Shown: one piece after another, positions 4,266 to 57,845 of the stretch
Layout of the letters: the number at the start of each line of letters is the position of its first letter
How positions within the stretch are numbered: position 1 is the stretch's first letter
Source of the DNA: an uncultured Gammaproteobacteria bacterium
GTDB taxonomy: Bacteria > Patescibacteriota > Patescibacteriia > SG8-24
Assembly: GCA_964486995.1 (NCBI GenBank)
Contig: CAZAOV010000001.1
Coordinates: 15,697-79,696, forward strand
Length of the DNA: 64,000 nt
Reading direction: 5' to 3'
Notes under the pieces: generated by a model
Seen by the model: the letters and a program-made list of their open reading frames with translations, nothing else
Told to the model about the DNA's origin: nothing
The model's database searches: none
Program-made: the position numbers and the translations under genes

Positions 4266-5150
4266 TTAAAGCTGATACCATTCCTTTGGTATTAAATTAC
4301 CGATATCTTTTTCAACTCTATTAAACCACTTCTTCGGCGCAATGACGATCTTATCTGAATTCCTGTTCAACCACGCCCCCCACCAGGAAAAACTGCTGTT
4401 GGCGATGATGTTGTGTTTGCAGTAGGACATCAGCATCAGCTCCTCATAGTCCTTGAGCTTGCCGTCCGAGACATAAGTCACAGGGTGATCAATCTTCAAA
4501 TTCTCTTTGACCCACTCGATGTCGTCCGAAAAAATAAATAAGTGCGGATTTTCTACTTTGCTGGTTACAAATTTCATTGCTGCTTCGTAGTAAGAAAGGG
4601 AGCAAGTGCCGTGATATTCGTTCGTTCTTTTATCGCTGACGTAATCGCCGCGCCGCACGTGCAAAGATATCGCATTGCAACTTATTATTTCTTGAGTGAT
4701 TGCGCGCCCTTCAATGCTATATTCATCTTTCAATGTGAATTCTTCCCGAATTATTTCTTCGGTGTCCTTAAAATATTTTTCACTCTGCCAATAGCCGCTC
4801 AAATATATTCCACGCTCACCAATTGCCGGAGGCATACGATAACCACTTGTGCCTTCACTGACAACACTATCGTCAAACAATCCAAGCCTTCGAAGCAGAA
4901 AACCCTGTAATCGCTTACCGAATCTTGTTCGTCCCTTCCTTTGCAAACGATTAATTTCTGCCTTGGTGGCCATCTCAATTGAAATATTAAAAACCCCCAG
5001 CCCAAAATGGCGTTTAGTATTATTTTTTGAATCATCTAAGCCAGACAAATCGAGTTTCAATCGCTGACCACTAATCTCCGCCAAAAAACGTCCATATGCA
5101 TACTGAAACATTTGGTTACCTAATCCTCCGATTATTCTGGTTACTATCAT
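4266..5150 (-). CDS. GT11 alpha-1,2-fucosyltransferase
   Basis: N-terminal IIGGLGNQMFQYAYGRFLA, then HVRRGDY, then C-terminal NIIANSSFSWWGAWLN: hallmark motifs of bacterial alpha-1,2-fucosyltransferases. Confidence 0.8.
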   Translation of the reverse strand: MIVTRIIGGLGNQMFQYAYGRFLAEISGQRLKLDLSGLDDSKNNTKRHFGLGVFNISIEMATKAEINRLQRKGRTRFGKRLQGFLLRRLGLFDDSVVSEGTSGYRMPPAIGERGIYLSGYWQSEKYFKDTEEIIREEFTLKDEYSIEGRAITQEIISCNAISLHVRRGDYVSDKRTNEYHGTCSLSYYEAAMKFVTSKVENPHLFIFSDDIEWVKENLKIDHPVTYVSDGKLKDYEELMLMSYCKHNIIANSSFSWWGAWLNRNSDKIVIAPKKWFNRVEKDIGNLIPKEWYQL

Positions 5151-5176
5151 GTGATGCCACTAATAATAATCACAAA

Positions 5177-5908
5177 TTAAGTCTTGATAGCGCGAATTTG
5201 ATAACCAAAATTTAGCAACTCACTAGATGCGTCTCCTTTCTTTGAAAATCGGGCTAATAACCGTATCACCAACAACAATCCAATTTCTTCAAAAAAATTT
5301 GGCTTGCTACCACCATAATTAAATCCAACGCTCTTAATTCTTCTTACTTCTTGAGCCAGATATTCAAAATAATTTCCGTTGGGCGTAATTTCTTCAACCT
5401 TAAATCCGTTATCAGCGAGAATTTTTTCATACCAATATCTACTATACCCGTTTGCAAAGTAATATGGGGCAAAATGTGTTAGGGAACAGAAGGGTGCGGT
5501 AATAATTAACGTCCCGCCAGGTCGTAAAATTCGAGAAAATTCTTTTACCGCTTTTGCTGGTTCGGGTAAATGCTCAAACACCTCTATGCACATTATCACA
5601 TCGAACGAGCCGCCAGTTACCGGTATATCGCAGATATCTGAAATGATATCAAGCTTCGAATTGTCCCAGGTGTCAGTCTGCAAACCAACAGCGTTACCAC
5701 TGCCATCATACTTACCGAAATCCTGACTTGTATATGCTAAATGAGAACAGAACTTCTTGTATTGTAATTCTCCCGCCCCAGCATCTAAAATCCTATTCCC
5801 CGTGGATATGCGCTTTAATGACCGTTCCAACCATTCCTCCCGAGTAATCACATTTTTTGTCCCAACGTCACCGGACAAACGTTTGATAACTTTTTTTACC
5901 AAATTCAT
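5177..5908 (-). CDS. Class I SAM-dependent methyltransferase
   Basis: Motif I ILDAGAGEL, then post-I DVIMCIEVFEHLPEP. Confidence 0.7.
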   Translation of the reverse strand: MNLVKKVIKRLSGDVGTKNVITREEWLERSLKRISTGNRILDAGAGELQYKKFCSHLAYTSQDFGKYDGSGNAVGLQTDTWDNSKLDIISDICDIPVTGGSFDVIMCIEVFEHLPEPAKAVKEFSRILRPGGTLIITAPFCSLTHFAPYYFANGYSRYWYEKILADNGFKVEEITPNGNYFEYLAQEVRRIKSVGFNYGGSKPNFFEEIGLLLVIRLLARFSKKGDASSELLNFGYQIRAIKT

Positions 5909-6726
5909 ATAGACGACTTTCTAAAATAAAAACATCCACAGCCATAATGCTGTTTATTGGCATCCGCTTCAGAGGCATTAAAAACCATACCTACTTTCCC
6001 AGCATTATCGGGTATCAAATCAAATTGAACCAACTTAAAACCTGAAAAATACTCTAGAATTTGTTCAAACGAATAAATTCTATGAGCGTTAAATTGAATT
6101 CTTGGCTGACCAGAAACGGGAACTGCAATAAGCAGGGTGCCAGCTTTAGCCGTAACCCTCTTCAATTCTGCGATGGCTTTTAAATCACCGTCGGGATCTA
6201 ATTCATCGCCATATCTTCCCAATCCCACATGTTCCAAGGTGTGCATGCACGACAGTGACGCAATGCTGTCATCTTCGAATGGCAACTTCAATAAATCGGT
6301 CCTCAAACATTCCAAATTAGATAAATTCAACTTCACCGGACGATAGTCGTAAAACTTAACAGGAATGAACGCGGACAACACGGAACAAAAATACAGGGTG
6401 GACGATATATCAACGTGTTCCGCTGGTCTGTTCACCGAAAGAATCCGTGTCGCCCAAGCCGGATGATAGATGTAATGGGCATCAAACCCGGTTAGCGACG
6501 TATTATCTTTAATACAGGGATATAAATCAGCATCATGTAGCTCAAAGCGCTCATTATGTTTCGATAAGTTCCTAAATTTTTTCAGCTCATGCCTAAACAA
6601 AAAATGCTTATACAGCACCTTATTTATGGCTCTATATTTTCGATAGGCGCCCTTAAGTAGTTTGCGAACCGGCTTTGGTAATCTACCGATAACAGTGCTC
6701 ATCTTCTGGGTGTTGATTATGGTCAT
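5905..6726 (-). CDS. Hypothetical protein, possibly methyltransferase-like
   Basis: A 273-aa ORF overlapping the neighbouring gene by 4 nt. The motif LSCMHTLEHVGLGRYGDELDPDGD resembles the motif II/III region of Methyltransf_11-type enzymes, but no clear Gly-rich motif I is present. Confidence 0.35.
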   Translation of the reverse strand: MTIINTQKMSTVIGRLPKPVRKLLKGAYRKYRAINKVLYKHFLFRHELKKFRNLSKHNERFELHDADLYPCIKDNTSLTGFDAHYIYHPAWATRILSVNRPAEHVDISSTLYFCSVLSAFIPVKFYDYRPVKLNLSNLECLRTDLLKLPFEDDSIASLSCMHTLEHVGLGRYGDELDPDGDLKAIAELKRVTAKAGTLLIAVPVSGQPRIQFNAHRIYSFEQILEYFSGFKLVQFDLIPDNAGKVGMVFNASEADANKQHYGCGCFYFRKSSI

Positions 6727-6937
6727 ATTTCATATCTTGAACAGTGCATATATTACCGTAAAAACAAGGATATAGATCTGTATAAGATGGCGCTGACTAT
6801 ATTTTGCTCCGTTTAACATGATAAAGATATTAAATTAAAATCGCCACCTTAATAATACTCGGGTATAATATTATTGTATCAAACTAATTACTTTAATTCT
6901 TAGTCGTTGATGTGGTGCAAATACAATCGGAATAACT

Positions 6938-7885
6938 ATGACTACAACTAAACCGAAACGTATACTAGTCACCGGTGGAGCAGGATTTATCGGCTCTCAT
7001 CTATGTGAACGACTGGTAAATGCGGACAATGAGGTGTTATGTGTGGATAATCTATTTACCGGCAACAAATCTAATATTTACCACTTATTAGACAGTCCGC
7101 TATTTGAGTTGATACGACACGATGTCACTTTTCCTTTATACGTTGAGATAGATGAAATCTATAATCTAGCTTGTCCCGCATCACCCATTCATTATCAATA
7201 CGATCCGGTGCAGACGACCAAGACCTCAGTCCATGGGGCCATCAACATGCTGGGGTTGGCCAAAAGGACTAAGGCGAAATTCCTCCAGGCTTCGACAAGT
7301 GAGGTTTATGGCGACCCAAAAGTGCATCCGCAGACTGAAGATTATTGGGGCAATGTTAATCCAATTGGATTGCGGGCTTGTTATGATGAGGGGAAACGAT
7401 GCGCTGAAACACTATGTTTCGATTATAGGCGACAAAATGGAGTCAGAACTAAAGTGGTGCGCATCTTCAATACATACGGGCCACGGATGCGGCCAGACGA
7501 TGGGCGGGTTGTATCTAACTTTATTATGCAGGCGTTGCACAATGAGCCAATAACTGTTTATGGGGATGGAGAGCAAACCCGATCATTCTGTTTTGTTGAT
7601 GACCTAGTTGACGCGTTGATTAGAATGATGGGCACGGAAGATGAGTTCGCAGGCCCCGTAAACTTAGGTAACCCAAACGAATTCACCATCTTAGAACTAA
7701 CAAAAAAAATTATTAAACAAACTAGGTCAAACTCTGAAATCATTTTCAAACCCCTTCCTGCTGACGATCCCAAACGACGAAAACCAGATATATCATTAGC
7801 TAAGCAAAAACTTGGTTGGGAACCGACGGTTGGTTTAGATGAAGGTCTGAAAAAAACGATTGATTATTTTAGGGCGATGTCCTAA
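6938..7885 (+). CDS. uxs: UDP-glucuronate decarboxylase (UDP-xylose synthase), SDR family
   Basis: [19 protein letters not shown]...[12 protein letters not shown]...YDEGKRCAE: the typical UXS/ArnA-decarboxylase pattern, 315 aa. Confidence 0.8.
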
Positions 7886-7989
7886 GCCAACATTTGCCCT
7901 CCTGATTTGAAAAAACTAAACACGATATAAAAGCATGGGTTCTAACTCGTGGTTTTATAGTCAGAATGAATAGCGGCAGCATATCTTCA

Positions 7990-8883
7990 TTATTTTTTTT
8001 GATTCATTTTTACGCAGTGCTTCATATTTCTAAGCAAGACTGAAAAAGAATTTCGACGCAATACCTTACCCGTCCTGCCCAAACTATCATTTTTTATTTT
8101 TATTGGTTTTTTCGTAAACTTTGAGAACCATGAGCATGAATTGTTTATAAGATATGCAATGTCTTCATCCGCTATCTGATCAAGATATGGCTCGAGTATC
8201 TTAAATGCCATCTCATTATTTTGTTCGCTTTCCCGAATCCAGTATGATTCATGCCCGTATCGATGTAGGTAATATGACTTTGGCATAACAACCATTTTTG
8301 TACCTGTCGCAAGCTGTCGCAAACCAAACCCCCAAGCGTCAAGTGCTTGTGCAAATTCTGGATAACCACCAGAGCGCTCCCAACTGTTTTTGGTATATAA
8401 ATAGTTACCACTAGCAATTGGGGAAATACTGCCAGCCAGGCAGTCTGCAAATGTATGCTTTTCAGATTGAAATTTCCAGACATGTGTAACTCTGTTCGGA
8501 CTTTTATTGAAATAATATACACATTCAAATGCTGCGGCATCGGCTTCCTGGCTATTCATAAATGCAAGTAACTTCTGAACGCTCCCTGGCATTAACAAAT
8601 TATCTGAATCGAGGCAGAATATTAAATCATGTCTGGCATTGCTAACTGCCGTATTTCGCGCCGCCGCGCCGCCGCTATTTTTTTTTTGATTGATAACGCG
8701 AATGCTTGAATATTTTTTTTGCAGTCTCTGCAATAATTCAGCAGTACCATCTGTTGACCCGTCATTAACCACAACAATTTCATCGCCCATCTTTAAATTT
8801 CCGTGCACGATAGATAAAATCGAGTCTGTAATATATTTCTCGTAATTGTATGTGGGTATCACATAACTAATATTTTGCATCAT
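7990..8883 (-). CDS. Family 2 glycosyltransferase (GT2)
   Basis: SYVIPTYNYEKYITDSILSIV...IVVVNDGSTDGT...LDSDN. Confidence 0.8.
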   Translation of the reverse strand: MMQNISYVIPTYNYEKYITDSILSIVHGNLKMGDEIVVVNDGSTDGTAELLQRLQKKYSSIRVINQKKNSGGAAARNTAVSNARHDLIFCLDSDNLLMPGSVQKLLAFMNSQEADAAAFECVYYFNKSPNRVTHVWKFQSEKHTFADCLAGSISPIASGNYLYTKNSWERSGGYPEFAQALDAWGFGLRQLATGTKMVVMPKSYYLHRYGHESYWIRESEQNNEMAFKILEPYLDQIADEDIAYLINNSCSWFSKFTKKPIKIKNDSLGRTGKVLRRNSFSVLLRNMKHCVKMNQKK

Positions 8884-15416: not shown

Positions 15417-16449
15417 ATTGAGCGTAATGTACCTTTTTATCTTCCTCGATCATTCCTTTCACCAAATCACTGAACTTGATTCGCGGCTCCCAGCCAAGCT
15501 TCTCTTTGGCCTTCGTAGCATCGCCAATCAGCAAATCGATTTCAGCTGGACGGAAATAACGCGGGTCTATCTTGATAATCGCCTGGCCAGTCTTTCGATC
15601 TATCCCCTGCTCATGCAGGCCCTCACCTTTCCAGGTCAAATCAAATTCCATTTGATGGGCCGCTTCCTCAACGAAATCTCTAACGCTATGCGTCTCCCCC
15701 GTTGCCAAAACAAAATCATCCGGTTCGCTATGCTGGAGTATCTTCCACATTCCCTCAACATAGTCGCGAGCATGACCCCAGTCACGTTTTGCTTCCAGGT
15801 TACCCAAGAACAACGTGTCGTCCAAACCAGCTTTGATACGATTTAACCCTCTGGTTATTTTTCTGGTGACAAATGTTTCGCCCCGCCGTTCAGATTCGTG
15901 ATTAAACAAAATGCCGTTTGAAGCGAACAGATCGTAGCTTTCTCGATAGTTCTTGGTAATCCAATACGCATACACCTTAGCGCAACCATACGGCGAACGC
16001 GGATAGAACGGCGTGTTTTCTGTCTGCGGAATTTCTTGAACTTTTCCGAACATTTCACTGGAAGACGCCTGATAATAACGAACTTTTGGACAGATATCAC
16101 GTACTGCTTCCAATATACGCGTCGTGGACAGACCCGTGACGTCACCCGTGTATTCTGGAATATCAAAACTTACCCGAACGTGTGACTGCGCTCCAAGATG
16201 ATAAATTTCATCTGGAATAATCTTCTTGAGCAGTCGGGCGATGTTGCTGCTATCAGCCAAATCGCCATAATGCAAAATCAACCGACGGCCGACATCATGA
16301 GGGTCAGAATAGATATGGTCGATACGCTCCGTATTAAACGACGAGGCCCGGCGAATAATGCCATGCACCTCATAGCCCTTTTCAAGCAGGAGTTCCGCCA
16401 AATATGAACCATCCTGACCGGTTATTCCTGTTATTAACGCTTTTTTCAT
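15397..16449 (-). CDS. gmd: GDP-mannose 4,6-dehydratase
   Basis: [47 protein letters not shown]: a near-canonical Gmd N-terminus, 350 aa. Confidence 0.9.
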
Positions 16450-49250: not shown

Positions 49251-52200
49251 TCAGACTCTCACCTCGAACAAACCGTTCGGTACTTTGCCGCCACCGGCAT
49301 CAGTATAGACAAACGGACTGCGCGAGCCCCCACCGCGAAGTGTGACCACATCGCTTAATTTGTCAGAAACAGTCTCATCCTTGGAATGTGCGTTCACGCC
49401 CATTTTTTGCGCTTTTTTCTGCACAAAATTACCCATGGCTTCTTTTATCTTCGGATGCGAATTGCTGCTGTAAACGCGTTCCATAAACAGCGCCGGTTCG
49501 CCAGCGTCGTTTTCCAACATACGCACCACGGCTCGCGCCAAGATGTTCTTGTCCTCATCGTACATTTGAATAATCTTCACGCCCGGGTCGCTCAAATATG
49601 ACATCAACCCGACGTTCATCCCCATGGAACTTTTATAGCTCTGGCATGACGGCACCGGTTTCTCGCCAATCAACGCATGCACTGACACATCAACCTCGTC
49701 GGTCAAGATCAGCTTGGACTTAGAAATCCGTTCACCGCCAAACATGCTTTGATGCGCATTATGCAACAAATGTTCGATGCGTTCCAAATCCTGCGCAAAG
49801 TCAGGATTCTCGTCGTCGAATACGTCATGCATATCGCGGAAAACAACATCGAGCGGCAGGCGTTTCTTTTTGTCGTCAAACGCCAGTGATTTTGTTTCCA
49901 CGCCCTCCAGAGAGATGCGTCGCAACCTCGCGAGGTAAATCTGCGCCCGAGTTCTCTTGATTTCCGGGTTGTTCCCCGCCAGGTGTTCATTCACTTTTTG
50001 CTGCAATTCGTGGAACTCCGCTTTCTCTTCTTCCGGAACATCTTCGTATTTCAACCCTTTCTTCCTGGCCTTCTTTACGGCTTTGAAACGCGCTTTAAGC
50101 TCCTTTTGTCGCGCGGTCCACTCTTTGATTGGCTCGGTCAGGCGCTCGTATTTGGCTTTTAGAACTTCGTCATCGGGCGGAATTTCGTTCACATCAATAT
50201 GATGATCGGCCATCGCCTGAGACAGAATGTCGCGCACGCTGCTATGAACATCCTTGATGTCATAGCCGAGTGCCTCATCAAAACCAGCTTCATCATGTTC
50301 GAGCCAGGCACGATACTGTTCGGCCGACAGCTCGGTCGGCAACAACCCTTCTTGCCTGAGCCGATTCAATCGGCCCTCAGCCTGCTGTTCGTTCTCCGGC
50401 GATCCGCCCTCGCCCCACGCCCGCCAATCCTCATAGTCACCGGCCACCACATGTTCAATGAACTGCCTGAACGCATCTTCCATGTCGGCCCGTTTCCGAC
50501 AGGTTTGCCGATAATAAATCGACAATGCCGCAATCGCCTCACCGGTCAGGCCCTCAAACCGCACCTCGTTCTCCGACTTCAGCTCGAAAATATTCTGCAT
50601 GTGTTCGCTGATACGACCCATGAGTTTGTCGCGCAACTCTGACCAATCACCCTGCGCCAAATCATATTCTAAACCTTCATCCAGCTGATTATGCGCCACA
50701 AACTCCAGCATCTCTACCGCCTCCTTGCGCTGAGCCGATGACAAAGCAAATATCGCCGGAGCATTATCCTTAGCAAGCGGCATGACATCTAATATCGCCA
50801 CGCGATTCATCATATCCATGAATTGCTCGGGCGGATAAGCCTCTGACGGTTTCAACTGCTTGCCCTTTCGCTGCTGCTGAACCTTGGCAATGACCTCCAG
50901 CTCTTTGCGGTGCAGTTCATAGAACGCTTTACCCGATGCTATTTCCAGCATGGCATCATAATAGTCCTGTTCCAGCTCATCGGCCTGCTCGATGTGGTGA
51001 TAGGGATTTATTTCCGCCAGCTTATTTGTCACCTCGGCCGACAAATTAAGTTTGTGATAATACTGCCCGTATCGATTACCGGAAAACGCCACGCTCCGCG
51101 CTCTGGCCAAATAAAGTTTTTCTAATTCCTCATCTGGAACTTGTTCTCTGATATCCCTAAATTCCCGACTGGTATCAGTGAGCACCGCCGGATTCACCAC
51201 CGCATATTCAGCGATGTTCTCGCGCATCAAATCCTGCATTTCTAAATCATCCATGCCGGCGACACCTGCCTCGAAGACATAAAATTTATTCGCCTGACTC
51301 TCTTCGGTTATGGAATCACGCACCTCGTCAATCCATCGCAGACGTTTGCGCTCATGCTGCTCGGACAGCGACTCCTCGAGGCGCTCTTTTTTAATATCAT
51401 CAATTTTCTGCAGTGCCGCGCGCAAGTCATCCCGTAGTGTCTTTTTTTCGCTCATGGATACCAACTTGCTTTTCAGGCGGTCACGCAAGTATCTCACATT
51501 CTGCTCCTGTCTTTTTAGCCCCTCCTGCCACCATTCGAGGTGATTCTTGAAATCACTTTCCACCCCATGCAACTGCCTTAGCAGCTTTCCGTAGTAACGA
51601 GTTTGACCAGTTTCCGCCAGCCGTTCCATGAACTGCCGTCGCAGTCCAGGCAGCGCAATCATCTCTCTCATTATGCTTTCACTATCTAAAAAATCTTCGA
51701 TATCGACAGACCGAATTCGCTCTAACATGAGTCCGATGGTTTCTCGAGCTCCGATTAGCTCAATAACGGCTCTCAGTTTGTAAGCCAGGTCTGTTGCCGC
51801 CTCGAAAGCGCCGGGCTGTTCCAGCAAGACTCGTTTTATTTGTTCCTGATAGGGTTTAGCCGCTTCGCTCCCGATGAAATACTCAATAAAATTTAAATCA
51901 ACGGGAATCGTCAGCTGCCGCTCAAAAAAATCTTCTCGCTCCTGTTTGCTGTACACCTTTTTGAATGCCAAGCTGCCAAACAGGTGAGGCGACGCCTCGA
52001 TTGTCCGCCTAGCGGTGACCTGCAGGGTGTCACTGCTGATATCGAAAGTTTCACCGGATTTTTCTTTCTGACGCAGTTGCTTTGTCAGGCGCGGATAGTG
52101 TTCAAGAAAATATGACGCGTCTTTTTGCATTTCCTCAACCAGCCGGTCAGCCGGAACAATATCGTGTTGAAGCGCATATTCGATGTTATACATCCATAGC

Positions 52201-53528
52201 GCCGGCTGATGCTTGGTGATTTGCCGCACCAGCCACTGCTGTTTGTCCGGCGACAGCACCGGCAACACCGAATCAATCTCCAGAATCAATTCACGTGCCA
52301 AATACGAACTCTGGCCCTCTTCAATTATGTGTCGGATGTGATGATCCAGAACTAGCTTTTCTAAATCAGGCGCGCCCTTGCGCTGGCGATTGAATTCGGC
52401 GATGCGTTGCAAATCCGTAAACCGATTCGAATTTAAGTAGCAACCTGAATTTCGATACAACTTTTTCATTAGTTCGGCTGCCTGTTGCTTGTCTGCACAC
52501 AACTCATCGATGTGATTCATCACCGGCACGCCGGATTCCACCATCTCGATGAACAGATCATCCTTATCGTTGAGATAATTTTCGTATAATTTGTAATTCT
52601 TCAGTATCGCCTCGGCGCGACGTTCGTTAGCGATATCTTTAAGTTTAGCCAGTCTTCGTGCCAGTGAGCGGCTGGCAACGGCGGATTGGTGTACCCATCT
52701 CACGTCGTCTTTTTTTACCCCCTCTCGCCTGACCAGCTCGTCCATCACGTCTTTTTCTTCGGCCTGATCTTCGTCGGTCAGAAAAAATTCGCCCCGAGAA
52801 TAAACCAGCCCATGGGAACTGGTCTGCCCAAGCATTTTTTCTAACATCTTGTCGGTAACCAAATCCGCTTCCTGCAATTTATCTAAATATTGCAGTACCA
52901 CGGTCGGCATGGTTTCTAGCGTTGCGATCATCAGCTCTTTCGCGTCATGGGCTTCGGGGTGCTGCCGACTGTATTCGGTCATTACGTCAATCAACTCTTC
53001 TATACGGTCGTAACTGTTAAAGTGCGCTTCGCGCAGGGAATGGCTTTCTTCCTTGCCGTTCACTTCGACGGAAACGTGATGCTGATGCAGGTTGGTAAAC
53101 GGCACCACCATGAGCGCATGCTCGGAATCATTTTCGCGAAACTCCTGCAAAAAATCTTTTCGAACCGCAATCGGAATATCATACCAGCACTCATGAAAAG
53201 TACGCACTGCTGTGCCCGGTTCTATGAGCCGACCGAGGTAAACGCCCAGATCAGCCTTCTGCTCCAAATTCATCGCCCTGACCTTGTCGAGCAGTTCCTC
53301 ATCCCCGACCATGTTTTTGGCCAGCAGACCTTCAACGATCTGCAGCTGCTGACTCTCGTCGAACTGGTCGAACGAATTCTCGAACAGATCAAAAAGCGCG
53401 GCCATATCCTGCTCGGATGCCTGCCGCACGTCTAGCGCTCCGCCTTCACTTAACCTAGCCCAAACCTCCTGAGAGTCGGGCTTCCTGTCTATTTTATGCT
53501 CTGGTTTGTAGCCGCCTTCTCCTAGCAT
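49251..53528 (-). CDS. Giant (1425 aa) acidic, predicted mostly alpha-helical protein of unknown function
   Basis: An uninterrupted 4.3 kb ORF. No catalytic motif, TM helix or signal peptide recognised. Co-directional with, and 71 bp upstream of, the exonuclease gene. Confidence 0.6.
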   Translation of the reverse strand: MLGEGGYKPEHKIDRKPDSQEVWARLSEGGALDVRQASEQDMAALFDLFENSFDQFDESQQLQIVEGLLAKNMVGDEELLDKVRAMNLEQKADLGVYLGRLIEPGTAVRTFHECWYDIPIAVRKDFLQEFRENDSEHALMVVPFTNLHQHHVSVEVNGKEESHSLREAHFNSYDRIEELIDVMTEYSRQHPEAHDAKELMIATLETMPTVVLQYLDKLQEADLVTDKMLEKMLGQTSSHGLVYSRGEFFLTDEDQAEEKDVMDELVRREGVKKDDVRWVHQSAVASRSLARRLAKLKDIANERRAEAILKNYKLYENYLNDKDDLFIEMVESGVPVMNHIDELCADKQQAAELMKKLYRNSGCYLNSNRFTDLQRIAEFNRQRKGAPDLEKLVLDHHIRHIIEEGQSSYLARELILEIDSVLPVLSPDKQQWLVRQITKHQPALWMYNIEYALQHDIVPADRLVEEMQKDASYFLEHYPRLTKQLRQKEKSGETFDISSDTLQVTARRTIEASPHLFGSLAFKKVYSKQEREDFFERQLTIPVDLNFIEYFIGSEAAKPYQEQIKRVLLEQPGAFEAATDLAYKLRAVIELIGARETIGLMLERIRSVDIEDFLDSESIMREMIALPGLRRQFMERLAETGQTRYYGKLLRQLHGVESDFKNHLEWWQEGLKRQEQNVRYLRDRLKSKLVSMSEKKTLRDDLRAALQKIDDIKKERLEESLSEQHERKRLRWIDEVRDSITEESQANKFYVFEAGVAGMDDLEMQDLMRENIAEYAVVNPAVLTDTSREFRDIREQVPDEELEKLYLARARSVAFSGNRYGQYYHKLNLSAEVTNKLAEINPYHHIEQADELEQDYYDAMLEIASGKAFYELHRKELEVIAKVQQQRKGKQLKPSEAYPPEQFMDMMNRVAILDVMPLAKDNAPAIFALSSAQRKEAVEMLEFVAHNQLDEGLEYDLAQGDWSELRDKLMGRISEHMQNIFELKSENEVRFEGLTGEAIAALSIYYRQTCRKRADMEDAFRQFIEHVVAGDYEDWRAWGEGGSPENEQQAEGRLNRLRQEGLLPTELSAEQYRAWLEHDEAGFDEALGYDIKDVHSSVRDILSQAMADHHIDVNEIPPDDEVLKAKYERLTEPIKEWTARQKELKARFKAVKKARKKGLKYEDVPEEEKAEFHELQQKVNEHLAGNNPEIKRTRAQIYLARLRRISLEGVETKSLAFDDKKKRLPLDVVFRDMHDVFDDENPDFAQDLERIEHLLHNAHQSMFGGERISKSKLILTDEVDVSVHALIGEKPVPSCQSYKSSMGMNVGLMSYLSDPGVKIIQMYDEDKNILARAVVRMLENDAGEPALFMERVYSSNSHPKIKEAMGNFVQKKAQKMGVNAHSKDETVSDKLSDVVTLRGGGSRSPFVYTDAGGGKVPNGLFEVRV

Positions 53529-53602
53529 TGCGCAAAAAATCGGTAAATATGCCTTTATTTTAGCACGAAATTGGACCTAAGTAAATCTTACGATATCAAA
53601 AA

Positions 53603-53620
53603 ACCACCCGCGCGGGTGGT
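53603..53620 (-). terminator. Rho-independent terminator for the 53627..53974 gene
   Basis: Perfect palindrome accacccgcgcgggtggt, preceded by an A-run on the plus strand. Confidence 0.5.
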
Positions 53621-53626
53621 TATGTT

Positions 53627-53974
53627 TTATTCGTCGAGCAGACGAATATTCGAGCGAATACCGCGATAGGTGTTCATATACACCATCACCGTGGTGCCAC
53701 GTCCGTCGTAGTAATCAAGATTGTTGTGCCAGCGCTCATCGCACTTAACTACGATGGCGCGGTCGTTGTCGCCCCAGGTTTCGACGACCGTTCCGACGCG
53801 CCAGACATCGCCGCGCGTTCTGACTTCGACCCGCGTGCCTTTGGGAAAAATTTCCCAGCCAGTTTCTAAGGCATCGGTGCCGGGGTCGTCCCAATGCTCC
53901 CGACCGTTGGTCGCTTCGGCTAGCCGGTCGCGGTTGACGCTTTTTTTGACATGAGATGCTCCTTGTTTGCTCAA
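53627..53974 (-). CDS. Small hypothetical protein
   Basis: 115 aa; a possible SH3/Tudor-like beta-rich core (KGTRVEVRTRGDVWRVGTVVETWGD). Confidence 0.4.
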   Translation of the reverse strand: MSKQGASHVKKSVNRDRLAEATNGREHWDDPGTDALETGWEIFPKGTRVEVRTRGDVWRVGTVVETWGDNDRAIVVKCDERWHNNLDYYDGRGTTVMVYMNTYRGIRSNIRLLDE

Positions 53975-54106
53975 TTTCAGTCGCCAGCTGTTCGGAGTTG
54001 TTCAGCGCAACTTAATTTAACGCAAAATACCGATATGCGAAAGCGCGGGGGTGATACACCGGCTGGTGAATCTCGGCAAGGGGCGTAAGCAGGTCAAGGT
54101 GTAAAA

Positions 54107-54165
54107 AACCGTCAGACTTGTTTTAAGGGGGCGCATAGCGTCGCCTTAAAACAAGTCTGACGGTT
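54107..54165. repeat. Intergenic hairpin repeat element (family aaacYgtcagacttRttttaagg), full inverted-repeat copy
   Basis: aaccgtcagacttgttttaagg ... ccttaaaacaagtctgacggtt gives a 22-bp stem. Related copies at 23668..23690 and 40111..40162. Confidence 0.8.
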
Positions 54166-54619
54166 TTAGAAGATTCAGAAAGCTACGCATTAAGTATCTG
54201 GTCACCATCTACCCACCCAGGAACAACCGCCAGGATGTATTCCCGGACGACGAGGATTGCCTTCTCCTTCCGCAACATTTTAGCTTCCACGGCGGACGAG
54301 CGCAATTTCTTTTGCCACGCGGACTGCCTGATAGGCAACCACTAACACCTCGAGGCGGCGGGGACGAGTCAATCTCCGCCGCCGTACTCGAATACACGGG
54401 TACGAGCAGAGCGAGGCGGCTGACCGGCCGGGGCTGCAACATTCCCGAATCGGCCAGATTATCAAAAAGATGGGGGGGGCGTAACGCTAAAGATTAAAGA
54501 CACGGTCCCTAAATACCTAATCCTGTTTTAACATATCAAAAACGTCCGACTCAGCGTCGGACGTTTTTGGCAGGGGCTCGTGGACTATGTTAGAACCCTT
54601 GCGATGGAGGTGTAGGGCA

Positions 54620-54997
54620 TTAGTTTCCCGAAGTACCGTCGATACCGTCGGAACCGTCGCATTGACCGATTTGTGCTGCATGTTCTAGCTCCCTCTCGAG
54701 CTTTCGCGAGTTTCCGTGCTTCAGCATGCCCATATAGGAATTCAGTGCGGGCAAACTCGCACCACCGACAACCGACCTAAGCATCCTTCTTTTCGTTACG
54801 GTGCGCAGCACGCGATGGTCGGGGAAATGCACCCATCCGAGAAAGTCGATACCGGACGACAGCGTCTTGATGCACACCTTGTTCGGATGAAGTTCGAGCC
54901 GAAGATCTTCTCGCAACTTTATTTCAATCACCGGCAGGTGGTAGGTGCAGGTGTACGTGCAGTGGCTCTGGATCCTGTACAATCGTGCGTTCGACAC
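54620..54997 (-). pseudogene. Reverse transcriptase C-terminal fragment (thumb-region homology only): remnant of a retroelement
   Basis: LREDLRLELHPNKVCIKTLSSGIDFLGWVHFPDHRVLRTV matches the RT motif-7/thumb consensus (L..LgL.ln.eKT.i....g.dFLGy.v). No finger/palm motifs (no YxDD) upstream. Has its own RBS aaaggagg plus a GTG start. Confidence 0.45.
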
Positions 54998-55104
54998 TGT
55001 TATCACCTCCTTTCGCTGGGGGTGATTTCAGTTAACTGACCAACTCGCTACGCGTCAAACGCACACACCAGCTAAAGCTGGTGGTTTATTATCTGAATGG
55101 AAAA

Positions 55105-55132
55105 CGCCCCGCGCAAAGAATGCGCGGGGCGT
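55105..55132 (-). terminator. Rho-independent terminator for the 55176..55730 gene
   Basis: cgccccgcgcaaagaatgcgcggggcg, preceded by aaaa on the plus strand. Confidence 0.55.
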
Positions 55133-55175
55133 TGCCGAAGGGCTAAGAGCTAAGGCTCTAAGAAGGACAGAGGAA

Positions 55176-55730
55176 TCAAGTGCTGCTTGCTCGAACCGCC
55201 GCCGGGTAGTCCGAGTACCAGTCGTTGTCGAGCCAGTGGTAACTCCAGTCCCACCAGCCGCCGACCCAGTAGAGAGAGCGGACGCACAGAGTGCCGTCAG
55301 GGCGGCGGTAGATGGTACCCCAGAAGTACACCGCCTTACCCTTCCACCCCTCGGGAATGAGGTGCGGATGGACCAGCAGGTGGTCCAGCACGTTGGCGTT
55401 CAGGGCCGGCTCGTCGGCGATGATACTGCGAAGGCCATCACCTTTGACCCAACCGGCCTTCTGCTTCTCGGAAACGAAGAGGTCGATTCCGACCTTTGAA
55501 AGATCGAGGGAGCCGCCCTCGCGATGTTCGACGACCTCCCACCTGTCGGGGCAGAACGGCGCGGCATCGCAGTCGACTAGATGGTTCGAAAGGCAGATCG
55601 ACGCGACCATTCGGTCGATAATCTTAGTATCGGCGAGCATCGCCTCGCCTTGCTCTGGCGTGATTCTCTCCGCGATCTTGCCCATAAGGGCGTTATACTT
55701 ACCAGCTTTCCAGTCAAATAGGTTGGCCAT
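55176..55730 (-). CDS. Hypothetical protein with a Trp/Tyr/Asp-rich C-terminus
   Basis: 184 aa; C-terminal ...LYWVGGWWDWSYHWLDNDWYSDYPAAV; no family recognised. Confidence 0.45.
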   Translation of the reverse strand: MANLFDWKAGKYNALMGKIAERITPEQGEAMLADTKIIDRMVASICLSNHLVDCDAAPFCPDRWEVVEHREGGSLDLSKVGIDLFVSEKQKAGWVKGDGLRSIIADEPALNANVLDHLLVHPHLIPEGWKGKAVYFWGTIYRRPDGTLCVRSLYWVGGWWDWSYHWLDNDWYSDYPAAVRASST

Positions 55731-56022
55731 GGGTTACCCCATCCTTTCCTTGCCGTCGGTTCACGCGCACGGACGACCATCGTCCACAGGCGTTATCCCA
55801 TTGTACAAAACGGCGGTGCGAGGTCGAACGATCAACCACGCACAGCCATTTTCAACATGCACGAATTGGCAGGTACGACACTGAAATATAGCATTTTTTG
55901 CTGTTTTTGTCAACCTCAATACAGATGGACCACAAGTTATGCTTCTGCCGCCTTCAAAACAAAAAATTACTCTACATTAAGCGGAATTTTTTGGCAGGGG
56001 CTCGTGGACTATGCTAGAAACC

Positions 56023-56625
56023 TCAACGCACACTACTGAAGCTTCTATATACTAATTCGGACATCGCCTCGTGTTTGCCAGACATTCCATCAATGCAGGC
56101 CCTTAGGTAGTCTGGTTCGTCCCAATCGACCTCCGGCAGCCCCAAGCTTGCTACCAGCAAATCAAGGAACAGTCGAATCGTTCGTCCGTTCCCTTCACGG
56201 AACGGATGTACTGCATTGAACTCGTTATGTATGAAGGCAATCTTGTTGGCAATTTCCTTCTCACTGTCTTTTTCCGTCGGAAGGCTGCCTTCTAGAGCCT
56301 GACTTAAAGTATCCATTGAATCCCGCAAATGCGCGACCGGCGCAAATAACATGTCGTCTTTAGATATATCGACACGCCGCAATTCACCAGCCCAGTCATA
56401 CAACGGACCCAAAAAATACTCGTGAATAGAAAAAAGTAGCGCAACATTGAATGCCACATTTCCCTGCTGCAGCAGGCCGAAGAAATGCTCGTATGCGTCC
56501 GCCAACAGAATGGTCTCCGCATCCTCCAGCGACTGCTGATCCGTGATGCCAAGCCTGTTTTTCAGCACTCCGTTCACCAGACCTGCATCCTCATCACTGA
56601 CGTTATATCGAGAATGCTCGGCCAT
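56023..56625 (-). CDS. Fic/Doc-family (Fido) protein, putative AMPylating toxin
   Basis: Canonical Fic motif HPFREGNGRTIRLFL (HPFx[DE]GNGR). Confidence 0.8.
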   Translation of the reverse strand: MAEHSRYNVSDEDAGLVNGVLKNRLGITDQQSLEDAETILLADAYEHFFGLLQQGNVAFNVALLFSIHEYFLGPLYDWAGELRRVDISKDDMLFAPVAHLRDSMDTLSQALEGSLPTEKDSEKEIANKIAFIHNEFNAVHPFREGNGRTIRLFLDLLVASLGLPEVDWDEPDYLRACIDGMSGKHEAMSELVYRSFSSVR

Positions 56626-56752
56626 TTCCCTTCAGTTTCTTAATAATGGTCGCATTCTTTTTTGCTCGCGAAAGACTCATGCCCTCGATTTTTGATGAGC
56701 GTGCTACCGCTTGCCGCAGATCATTCATGGTGGCTTTCTTTCGTTTTGCCAT
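56603..56752 (-). CDS. Putative small antitoxin carrying the Fic inhibitory helix motif (VbhA-like, class I Fic TA)
   Basis: A 49-aa ORF not in the ORF track (MAKRKKATMNDLRQAVARSSKIEGMSLSRAKKNATIIKKLKGNGRAFSI). It contains S-S-K-I-E-G, i.e. [ST]xxxE[GN], and overlaps the Fic start by 23 nt in another frame. Confidence 0.5.
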   Translation of the reverse strand: MAKRKKATMNDLRQAVARSSKIEGMSLSRAKKNATIIKKLKGNGRAFSI

Positions 56753-56801
56753 ATCGCTTTATACTGTAATTATGGTTATATTTTAGCAAAAATTTAGCAA
56801 C

Positions 56802-57290
56802 TTAGCAACTCCTTATCTTTCGTATAGTTGGCCAAAAAAGGAAGTGGCAATTGCTTTCACTTACATCTAGAAATCTCACCCATTCAACTGACTTAACCTC
56901 TCCGTCAATGACTGATTTTGGCGTACCCTCTTTACCTTCAACAATTTCCACTTGATGCATCATGGCAACGACATGATAAAACCTGTCGTCTTTTTCTATG
57001 TGCAAATATCTTTCTGCTAAATCGTAAAATTCAGATGATTTAACCTTGTATCCAGTCTCCTCTAGAACCTCTCGATGAAGAGCCTCTTTAACGCTTTCGC
57101 CCATATCCATCCCACCACCAGGAAACGCGTACAAACCATGATGGGGCCTGACCATCAAGATTGAGTCATCTCGGATAATCACGGCATAAACCGTCGGTCG
57201 CCAAAAAATTTCTACGTCGGCCGGGATTTCTTTTTCAATCCCTTGATTGTCATCAAAATAATTCATACTCATGCATCCTATCACACCCAA
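56802..57290 (-). CDS. NUDIX hydrolase
   Basis: Nudix box FPGGGMDMGESVKEALHREVLEETG. Confidence 0.75.
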   Translation of the reverse strand: MGVIGCMSMNYFDDNQGIEKEIPADVEIFWRPTVYAVIIRDDSILMVRPHHGLYAFPGGGMDMGESVKEALHREVLEETGYKVKSSEFYDLAERYLHIEKDDRFYHVVAMMHQVEIVEGKEGTPKSVIDGEVKSVEWVRFLDVSESNCHFLFWPTIRKIRSC

Positions 57291-57351
57291 GCTTTAATTG
57301 ATTACTATTAAAGCAATCAAAAATCCCCTGCTAAAATTAGCAGAGGATTTT

Positions 57352-57425
57352 TGGCAGGGGCGGCAGGGATCGAACCCGCAATAAAGGTTTTGGAGACCCT
57401 TGTGATACCATTTCACCACGCCCCT
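57352..57425 (-). tRNA. tRNA-Trp (CCA), 3'-CCA encoded
   Basis: Folded manually: acceptor AGGGGCG/CGCCCCT, anticodon loop CTCCAAA, T-loop TTCGATC. Confidence 0.85.
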
Positions 57426-57689
57426 ATGAATTGCGTTTGGATGTTACCTTAGGATTTGGGGTTGTGCAAGGCTATTCGAGCGGCCTATCTGCTGAACTGA
57501 ATCCTTACCGCAATTCGAAGTCCGGGGTCAGTACGACGGGTTGATTGAGTGTCTGGTGCGTTTATGTGGATTTTTGCCTCCGCAGGAATGACATGAGGAG
57601 GACGAGAAAATCAAGCAAGAAGATCGTTGCCGAACAATCAAGCACGTGACGCTTAAACGGCGGTTGCCCGCCGTTTTTTCGCTTGATTG

Positions 57690-57845
57690 CTACTTAGTTT
57701 CCTTGTGCAGCACGTGCTTCTTGCACCACTTGCAAAACTTTTTCATCTCCAAGCGGTCTTTCAGCGTTTTCTTGTTCTTGTGGGAGAAGTAGTTGATGCG
57801 CTTGCATCCAGTACACTCCAACTTCATCAAATTATCTTGAGACAT
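57690..57845 (-). CDS. rpmG: 50S ribosomal protein L33
   Basis: A 51-aa ORF below the ORF-track cutoff ([51 protein letters not shown]). It has the CxxC...CxxC zinc-ribbon pattern of L33 and lies between tRNA-Thr and tRNA-Trp. Confidence 0.8.

Follow-up and report, generated by a model that had tools for sequence, protein, structure and literature searches.

Clade 2 of the diversity-generating retroelements (DGRs), in which the literature would place elements of the present type, is restricted to Patescibacteria and is encoded by cells (Roux et al. 2021, PMC8144416). The cassette architecture considered here is typical of the 'CPR set' (CPR, candidate phyla radiation; Wu et al. 2018, PMC5758913). 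Nothing can be concluded on the mobile context of the CPR DGRs (PMC5758913), and published information on their movement is essentially non-existent. In the present work, a stretch of 64,000 nt was analysed, hereafter called the window, to which all coordinates refer unless a locus number is given. It covers positions 15,697 to 79,696 (forward strand) of contig CAZAOV010000001.1 in GenBank assembly GCA_964486995.1, deposited as an uncultured Gammaproteobacteria bacterium and assigned to Patescibacteriota by GTDB. An original prediction, made from the letters alone, had described a retroelement remnant at 54560-56020 as a possible decayed DGR, retron or group II intron. As judged by alignment to relatives, the region 54558-56023 almost certainly corresponds to a Patescibacteria (CPR)-type DGR cassette that has lost its engine. 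The explanation as a whole, namely a decayed DGR cassette which has lost self-diversification and is stacked at a tRNA-Trp gene, is put forward with good confidence.

In intact relatives the cassette displays the following order: promoter, variable-protein gene with the variable repeat (VR) at its 3' end, terminator, template repeat (TR), inverted avd gene and reverse transcriptase (RT) gene. All the genes located within 53.6-57.9 kb of the window lie on the minus strand, and the part assigned to the cassette and its borders, read along that strand, comprises the features listed below.

55982-56023: repeat B, a putative diverged tRNA-Trp 3' fragment abutting the stop codon of a Fic gene and forming the boundary of blocks 1 and 2 (see below)
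55885-55913, minus strand: predicted strong promoter of the variable-protein gene, TTGACA-17-TATATT, an 11/12 match kept in loci L005 and L006
55176-55730, minus strand: intact gene of the DGR variable (target) protein, 184 aa, recognised from homologues and alignments
55187-55298, minus strand: VR, the template of which is gone, 82% identical to the TR of locus L012
55103-55133: GC-rich hairpin and terminator after the VR, the last stretch homologous to L005 and L006
54937-55102, minus strand: filler of 166 nt of unrelated sequence, delimited by homology breakpoints
54620-55006, minus strand: RT remnant open reading frame (ORF), with RT homology only over 54623-54936
54558-54599: repeat A, a putative diverged tRNA-Trp 3' fragment that natively flanks the RT gene on its 3' side
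54537-54569: two-way terminator closing block 2 on its distal side, a 14-bp hairpin without mismatch and with A and T runs

The 184-aa protein is, by its family membership, a DGR variable protein. The original prediction had pointed to a tryptophan-rich C-terminus reminiscent of variable regions, and the ORF is indeed as described. Its 333 homologues, of ~190 aa and without a Pfam domain, come from Patescibacteria, and their alignment displays a conserved body followed by a C-terminal scaffold (FFWGTIYR..DG.L.VR.L.W..G.W.W...WL...W....PAA) with variable residues in between. The closest target relatives, found in L005-L010, share 75% amino acid identity with it and possess their own VR as well as a TR located 446 nt downstream; these repeats are 88% identical and 11 of their 12 mismatches fall on TR adenines. 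Comparison of the window VR with the L012 TR gave 15 differences in 93 positions, 11 of them at the 23 TR adenines and 4 at the 70 other positions, and 9 of the 14 mismatches to the L005 TR likewise involve adenines of the template. Because 11 of the 15 differences in this C-terminal repeat fall on TR adenines, the variable protein was once diversified; in these alignments the VR is shown to carry the adenine-mutagenesis signature of past retrohoming, which is a historical signature only. DNA homology to L005 and L006 begins at ~55927, a short distance before the promoter, covers the gene and ends with the terminator hairpin. Both the GC-rich VR end (CCCGGCGGCGGTTCG) and the hairpin at 55103-55133 are kept in these two loci and are candidate target-recognition elements, the former as the initiation of mutagenic homing (IMH) sequence. 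An AlphaFold2 model of the protein (pLDDT 85) displays weak matches to the C-type-lectin fold, and no significant match was obtained when this model was compared to the PDB using Foldseek. A scan of viral sequences with the protein gave no match. As for L005 (1740-6215) and L006 (1728-4306) themselves, they keep the VR, the TR and part of avd, inside which their homology to L012 ends; no RT follows that part of avd, and L005 has a GIY-YIG gene and an HTH_38 gene instead.

The RT-like ORF covers 54620-55006 when read from its first GTG (128 aa) and 54620-54997 when read from the second (125 aa), the shorter form being the one used in a public annotation (P0001). A check against RT profiles had been proposed along with the original prediction: Pfam gave no match, and the sole profile match, in NCBIfam, is a group II intron RT model at E 0.085. 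The RT similarity was established by homology search, which returned 441 relatives carrying RVT_1, mostly from Patescibacteria, whose alignment displays GLPLGNLTSQ (the DGR-type motif 4) and YADD upstream of the part common to the window. The description of the ORF as a C-terminal RT fragment devoid of palm motifs proved correct, as full-length relatives match in tblastn only through their last 84-105 residues: the L002 RT over residues 207-290 of 295, and the L012 RT over residues 244-348 of 348 with 89.5% identity. Neither query detected a further RT piece anywhere in the 64 kb. What remains is the last 105 residues, with motifs 6/7 and the C-terminal region; motifs 1-5, including YADD and GNLTSQ, were not found by tblastn or by a motif scan of the window. 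This RT tail is fused in frame to ~20 new codons from the filler. The strong Shine-Dalgarno sequence AGGAGGTGA and the GTG starts, earlier taken for the gene's own, are present but cannot be called its own, since both come from the unrelated filler. The latter has no match in the fetched loci except L011, a Logan contig of the same strain, and shows no trace of Avd. GTG is a frequent start codon among the DGR RT genes of this clade, and gene callers pick an internal ATG, which yields falsely short RTs and makes truncated RTs look more numerous in protein databases than they are; the L002 RT (5713-6600), for instance, was called as 199 aa and is a GTG-start ORF of 295 aa within a complete DGR. 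Annotators should accordingly be aware that short 'reverse transcriptase domain' proteins of CPR genomes can be either DGR remnants or mis-called GTG-start genes.

The extent of the loss can be appreciated by comparison with L012, a metagenome contig which displays, in the same orientation, the repeat sequence, the 348-aa RT (RVT_1 at residues 75-278), an Avd gene (NF033474, E 8e-15; PF22296, E 8e-10) and a TR. Its nt 17-388 correspond to 54568-54936 of the window with 88.4% identity, and the homology ends sharply at RT codon 244. The L002 DGR is complete as well: its VR (4667-4778) and TR (5111-5222) are 87% identical, and an Avd-like gene is encoded on the opposite strand. Missing from the window are the spacer, the TR, avd and the 5' 70% of the RT (residues 1-243). 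The original prediction had reported no TR/VR pair, and an adenine-tolerant scan of both strands over the 64 kb gave the same result, returning the self-match (151/151) followed by a next best of ~45/151. A tblastn search of the window with the L012 Avd produced nothing below E = 1. The size of the deletion was pieced together from L005 (~240 nt from terminator to TR) and L012 (~1230 nt from TR to RT codon 244): it would appear that ~1.5 kb was lost and that 166 nt of unrelated DNA took its place. The deletion would extend from just past the variable-protein terminator (~55102) to RT codon 244 (54936) and would have spared the variable-protein gene, still intact and equipped with a promoter and a terminator of its own, as well as the 105-residue RT tail. 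Without TR RNA, Avd and a catalytic RT, the locus should be unable to diversify itself, and the variable protein would now be fixed in one variant, short of cDNA being provided in trans by a second DGR elsewhere in the genome.

The frequency of such decay was estimated on 80 species-level loci encoding the variable-protein family, an orphan being defined as a locus with no TR, Avd or RT within 8 kb. The classification gave 19 intact loci (target, TR, inverted avd and full RT), 7 partial loci (with at least 3.2 kb of downstream sequence to hand), 34 orphans and 20 undetermined loci cut by contig ends. The decayed or orphan condition, seen in 41 of the 60 judgeable loci, is the commonest state of the family, and on this classification decay is the rule rather than the exception. 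The RT residues kept in other remnants are 200-331 (L001), 175-328 (L078), 280-328 (L089) and 239-323 (L014). An independent DGR wreck is found in L014 (8480-9040), where the 3' end of a target is fused to a TR-like, Asn-rich sequence directly followed by avd, and where the junction between Avd residue 18 and RT residue 239 lies only 5 codons from the breakpoint of the window; the fusion suggests the product expected of a deletion by recombination between VR and TR. In L001 (1-2301), the very beginning of a 74-kb contig holds a 5'-truncated RT, preceded at a distance of 400 nt by 41 nt that match the conserved pre-TR region of L012; a separate 23S_rRNA_IVP (Avd-like) gene occurs in the glycosyltransferase cluster that follows.

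The alternatives to a dead DGR differ widely in merit. That a retron or a group II intron left this remnant is highly improbable: the group II intron RT model is admittedly the sole profile match of the fragment and also the best NCBIfam match of the full-length relatives, but these score 137-148 bits, far under the TIGR04416 cut-off of 300, and they possess Avd, adenine-biased TR/VR pairs and the GxxxSQ motif. No maturase or endonuclease domain was found, and no Rfam match to msr/msd or group II intron domains was obtained, either at the gathering level over the whole window or, within 53500-57500, with the threshold relaxed to E 5. The DGR option of the original prediction is thereby borne out by the RT motifs, Avd and TR/VR pairs of the relatives, and its retron and intron options find no support, nor do the msr/msd or intron structures it had proposed to look for: the non-coding stretch 54168-54540 has no Rfam match and folds no better than its shuffles (z = -0.74). 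It is also very unlikely that the 125/128-aa RT tail was kept as a working 'thumb-only' protein. The open frame, AGGAGGTGA with its GTG and a ratio of nonsynonymous to synonymous substitution rates (dN/dS) of 0.14 against L012, at dS 0.37, do weigh against a functionless leftover, and 5'-truncated RT pieces exist in other CPR genomes (L001, L014, L078, L089). The breakpoint is nevertheless different in every truncated RT, the new N-terminus has no homologue, many database entries for short RTs are gene-calling artefacts of the kind seen in L002, and a low dN/dS is expected if the divergence mostly predates a recent deletion; the value fits either a recent deletion or a kept function. A recent, functionless leftover is the most likely status of the tail.

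Continued diversification in trans, by a complete DGR located elsewhere for which the locus would act as a remote target, is an unlikely reading. The target gene is intact, its promoter, GC-rich VR end and downstream hairpin are conserved, and remote DGR targets have been described (PMC5758913). The 34 orphans among the 80 family members fit widespread decay and trans targeting alike. Against such targeting stand the lack of a TR or other RT piece in the 64-kb window, the RT tail, which marks a former local engine, and the local TR kept by the closest relatives. The notion of a frozen protein is weakened all the same, since orphan targets are common and the view is limited to the 64-kb window. 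The locus provides a clean and datable case of DGR death, in which one deletion took the TR, Avd and the catalytic RT but left the diversified gene, thereafter an ordinary gene that would no longer vary. The case is by itself of little consequence, DGR decay being ordinary and common in this family.

Genomic islands insert at the 3' ends of tRNA genes, with tandem accretion, and a review by Williams from 2002 reportedly covers the sublocations of islands at tRNA genes. The surroundings of the cassette are described here with the tRNA-Trp gene as reference. Upstream of repeat B on the minus strand, the features are as follows.

57690-57845, minus strand: rpmG
57352-57425, minus strand: tRNA-Trp (CCA) gene (ARAGORN; Rfam tRNA 59.9 bits), the anchor of the proposed stacked insertions
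57348-57361: core copy 1, TTTTTGGCAGGGGC, consisting of the tRNA-Trp 3' end (GCCCCTGCCA) and an A run
57318-57353, minus strand: terminator hairpin directly after tRNA-Trp (16 pairs and a T run), start of block 1
56802-57290, minus strand: NUDIX hydrolase gene of block 1 (Pfam NUDIX, E 1.6e-19)
56603-56752, minus strand: 49-aa ORF of block 1, possible antitoxin or regulator (weak DUF4172 match, E 0.002)
56023-56625, minus strand: Fic-domain gene of block 1 with an HPFREGNGR motif (Pfam Fic, E 2.3e-16)

The VbhT/Fic matches of the Fic protein in NCBIfam fall below the cut-offs of those models. The 49-aa ORF, which is basic, overlaps the start of the Fic gene, and the pair (56023-56752, minus strand) has a toxin-antitoxin-like layout.

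The sequence TTTTTGGCAGGGGCTCGTGGACTATG[T/C]TAGAA is present in exactly two copies in the window (54564-54595 and 55988-56019), where shuffled sequences lead to an expectation of 0. Flanks included, the repeat measures 42 nt (54558-54599 against 55982-56023) with 38/42 identity and a longest exact run of 26 nt. The direct repeats of the original prediction are real, their starts having been placed ~2-3 nt early, and they do bracket the retroelement. The latter did not make them: they are read here as diverged copies of the tRNA-Trp 3' part, of the kind found where elements inserted into tRNA genes end. The similarity already noticed between the start of the repeat and that tRNA is exact over 14 nt: the first 14 nt of the repeat recur as a third core copy at 57348-57361, overlapping the acceptor strand and the CCA, and the three copies are spaced by 1424 and 1360 nt. 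The 3' part of tRNA-Trp (GGGTTCGATCCCTGCCGCCCCTGCCA) can be aligned with the repeats (GGGTTCTAACATAGTCCACGAGCCCCTGCCA) at 20 of 27 positions with one 5-nt insertion, the last 10 nt and the A run that follows being exact along this alignment from T-arm to CCA. A derivation limited to 10-14 nt, proposed on the ground that the repeat has no T-arm fold, was dropped in view of the alignment with the 5-nt indel and of the parallel in L071 described below. A hairpin with a T run is located after each of the three core copies. Block 1 (NUDIX, small ORF, Fic) measures 1360 nt at 42-46% G+C and block 2 (the DGR remnant) 1424 nt at 55-59%, with surroundings of ~47-52% for both. A scan of metagenomes with a 21-mer of the repeat retrieved a single contig, L012, and a viral scan gave no match. 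Repeat B is 94% identical to nt 17-49 of L012. As the same sequence follows the intact RT of L012, repeat A is recognised as the 3' flank native to the RT gene.

Since the repeats and the tRNA end bound two blocks of differing G+C, a stacked insertion is the favoured interpretation: on balance, both blocks were probably inserted successively by site-specific recombination at the tRNA-Trp 3' end. In such a process, the two 42-nt repeats would represent diverged copies of the tRNA-Trp 3' part (GGGTTC...GCCCCTGCCA and A run), the tRNA would be regenerated at each insertion, a pseudo-3' fragment would mark the far end of each block, and the integrase would be absent or encoded elsewhere. A second Patescibacteria species, represented by L071, displays a comparable layout. 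Downstream of its tRNA-Trp (6497-6570), the T-arm/3' part of this gene recurs in three degenerate copies, at ~6705, 7698 and 8650, the third of which (GTTCTAAACACGGATGCTCCTGCCATAAAATCCG) resembles the window repeat. These fragments bound a block with a 206-aa gene and another with an orphan of the variable-protein family described above, the gene of which may be frameshifted; both blocks have a promoter and a terminator of their own (region 6497-8690).

A number of observations weigh against this insertion scheme. No integrase was found by Pfam in nine ORFs of 38-49 kb, one of 58.5-59.5 kb and the ORFs of 49-57 kb, and a crude regular-expression search for recombinase motifs over the whole window was empty, the ORFs of 1-38 kb not having been profiled. 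Exact identity of the repeats to the tRNA is limited to 14 nt. The 19 intact relatives display neither flanking direct repeats above a reverse-complement control nor T-loop-like (pseudo-tRNA) fragments at the cassette borders. Linkage to the tRNA is seen only in the window, in L071 and, partly, in L012, whose contig extends just 16 nt past the CCA; these 16 nt (GCGTGGAAAAACGGTC) possibly represent the same flank carrying an indel of 6 nt, and the exact right boundary is accordingly tentative. The search for an empty site relied on a 1425-aa Glu/Lys-rich flanking protein (49251-53528, minus strand), which belongs to no Pfam or NCBIfam family. It had no relative in 185,579 species-representative genomes, and this genome-collection scan provided no empty site. 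Exact-protein look-ups for an occupied or empty site returned the same strain only, L071 being a distant parallel.

The repeats could also have arisen without any insertion at the tRNA, by local duplication of, or unequal crossing-over in, the RT 3' flank, or the tandem layout could be a chimera into which the assembler merged two strain variants. The sequence of repeat A naturally follows the RT gene in L012, and the missing integrase and the intact relatives devoid of flanking repeats are in line with such an origin. Two Logan contigs, L011 and L093, are 100% identical to the window in every segment compared and, from their gene coordinates, span ~53545-57440 with both repeats included; both were assembled from one sequencing run, SRR7048221. 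This explanation is nevertheless rather unlikely: the 14-nt identity falls exactly at the tRNA-Trp 3' end and is extended by further T-arm similarity, the two blocks are unlike in G+C, and the layout has its parallel in L071. Collapse of the assembly graph also seems unlikely, the exact run of 26 nt being shorter than the 31-mers that Logan is assumed to use. Insertion at the tRNA-Trp gene was consequently preferred. The stacking of the cassette and an unrelated NUDIX/Fic block behind tRNA-Trp, with a parallel in a second species, is a modest lead and not a discovery. A far broader proposal, regarded as speculative and doubtful, is that integrase-less blocks, whole DGR cassettes included, are mobilised in trans into the tRNA-Trp 3' end in Patescibacteria and pile up into arrays, each block ending in a pseudo-tRNA 3' fragment. 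If true, it would amount to an integron-like exchange of cassettes spreading hypervariable surface proteins among these reduced genomes, and the short tRNA 3'-end duplications of CPR loci (135-170 nt) might have the same origin.

Such duplications were observed in L002 (7010-7237), L004 (9135-9390), L021 (7270-7520) and L069 (10849-11110), where the 3' ends (15-~60 nt) of tRNA genes for Arg, Leu, Ile and Leu are copied 135-170 nt downstream. They look like very short inserts or insertion scars. In L021, the second copy amounts to an almost complete tRNA-Ile whose D-arm region contains a palindromic insert of 20 nt.

On the distal side of the cassette, a 30-nt inverted repeat (54105-54167; 93% complementary, 3-nt loop) lies between a 115-aa gene and a non-coding gap and is probably a two-way terminator. 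The tRNA aside, the Rfam matches in 53.5-57.5 kb were just sub-threshold look-alikes of miRNA families at this palindrome, and were rejected as spurious. The gap, a 373-nt stretch (54168-54540) between the distal repeat and the next gene, contains a run of eight G/C and no convincing ORF.

The locus can finally be compared with the known systems it resembles. Direct repeats of a tRNA 3' end, an intact tRNA and atypical G+C are shared with the islands found at tRNA genes; here, a terminator follows each core copy. It differs from them in that no integrase was found, the blocks measure just 1.36 and 1.42 kb and the exact core is 14 nt. Integron arrays and clusters of attC sites lacking integron-integrases (CALINs) likewise contain small blocks of one to few genes, a recurring short site and no adjoining recombinase, but the site is tRNA-derived here rather than an attC hairpin (attC features were not tested for), and there are just two blocks, each with its own promoter. 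The logic of the prototype, the DGR of Bordetella phage BPP-1 (Mtd, Avd, TR, bRT), would be the same, as deduced from the relatives: they display adenine-specific transfer from TR to VR, Avd and a C-terminal VR, and the protein model has a weak C-type-lectin-like similarity. A functional DGR comprises a catalytic RT with YxDD and [LIV]GxxxSQ, a TR/VR pair and Avd, all lacking in the window. The copy described here, without TR, avd and RT residues 1-243, therefore differs from the CPR DGRs in falling outside the working definition of a DGR and is a remnant. It nevertheless belongs with them, being of the same RT family (55-63% identity to the RTs of the 19 intact loci, 89.5% to that of L012) and of the same variable-protein family, with the same cassette order in its relatives. 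The CPR DGRs are cellular rather than phage-borne, and the repeat and target of the window gave no matches among viruses.

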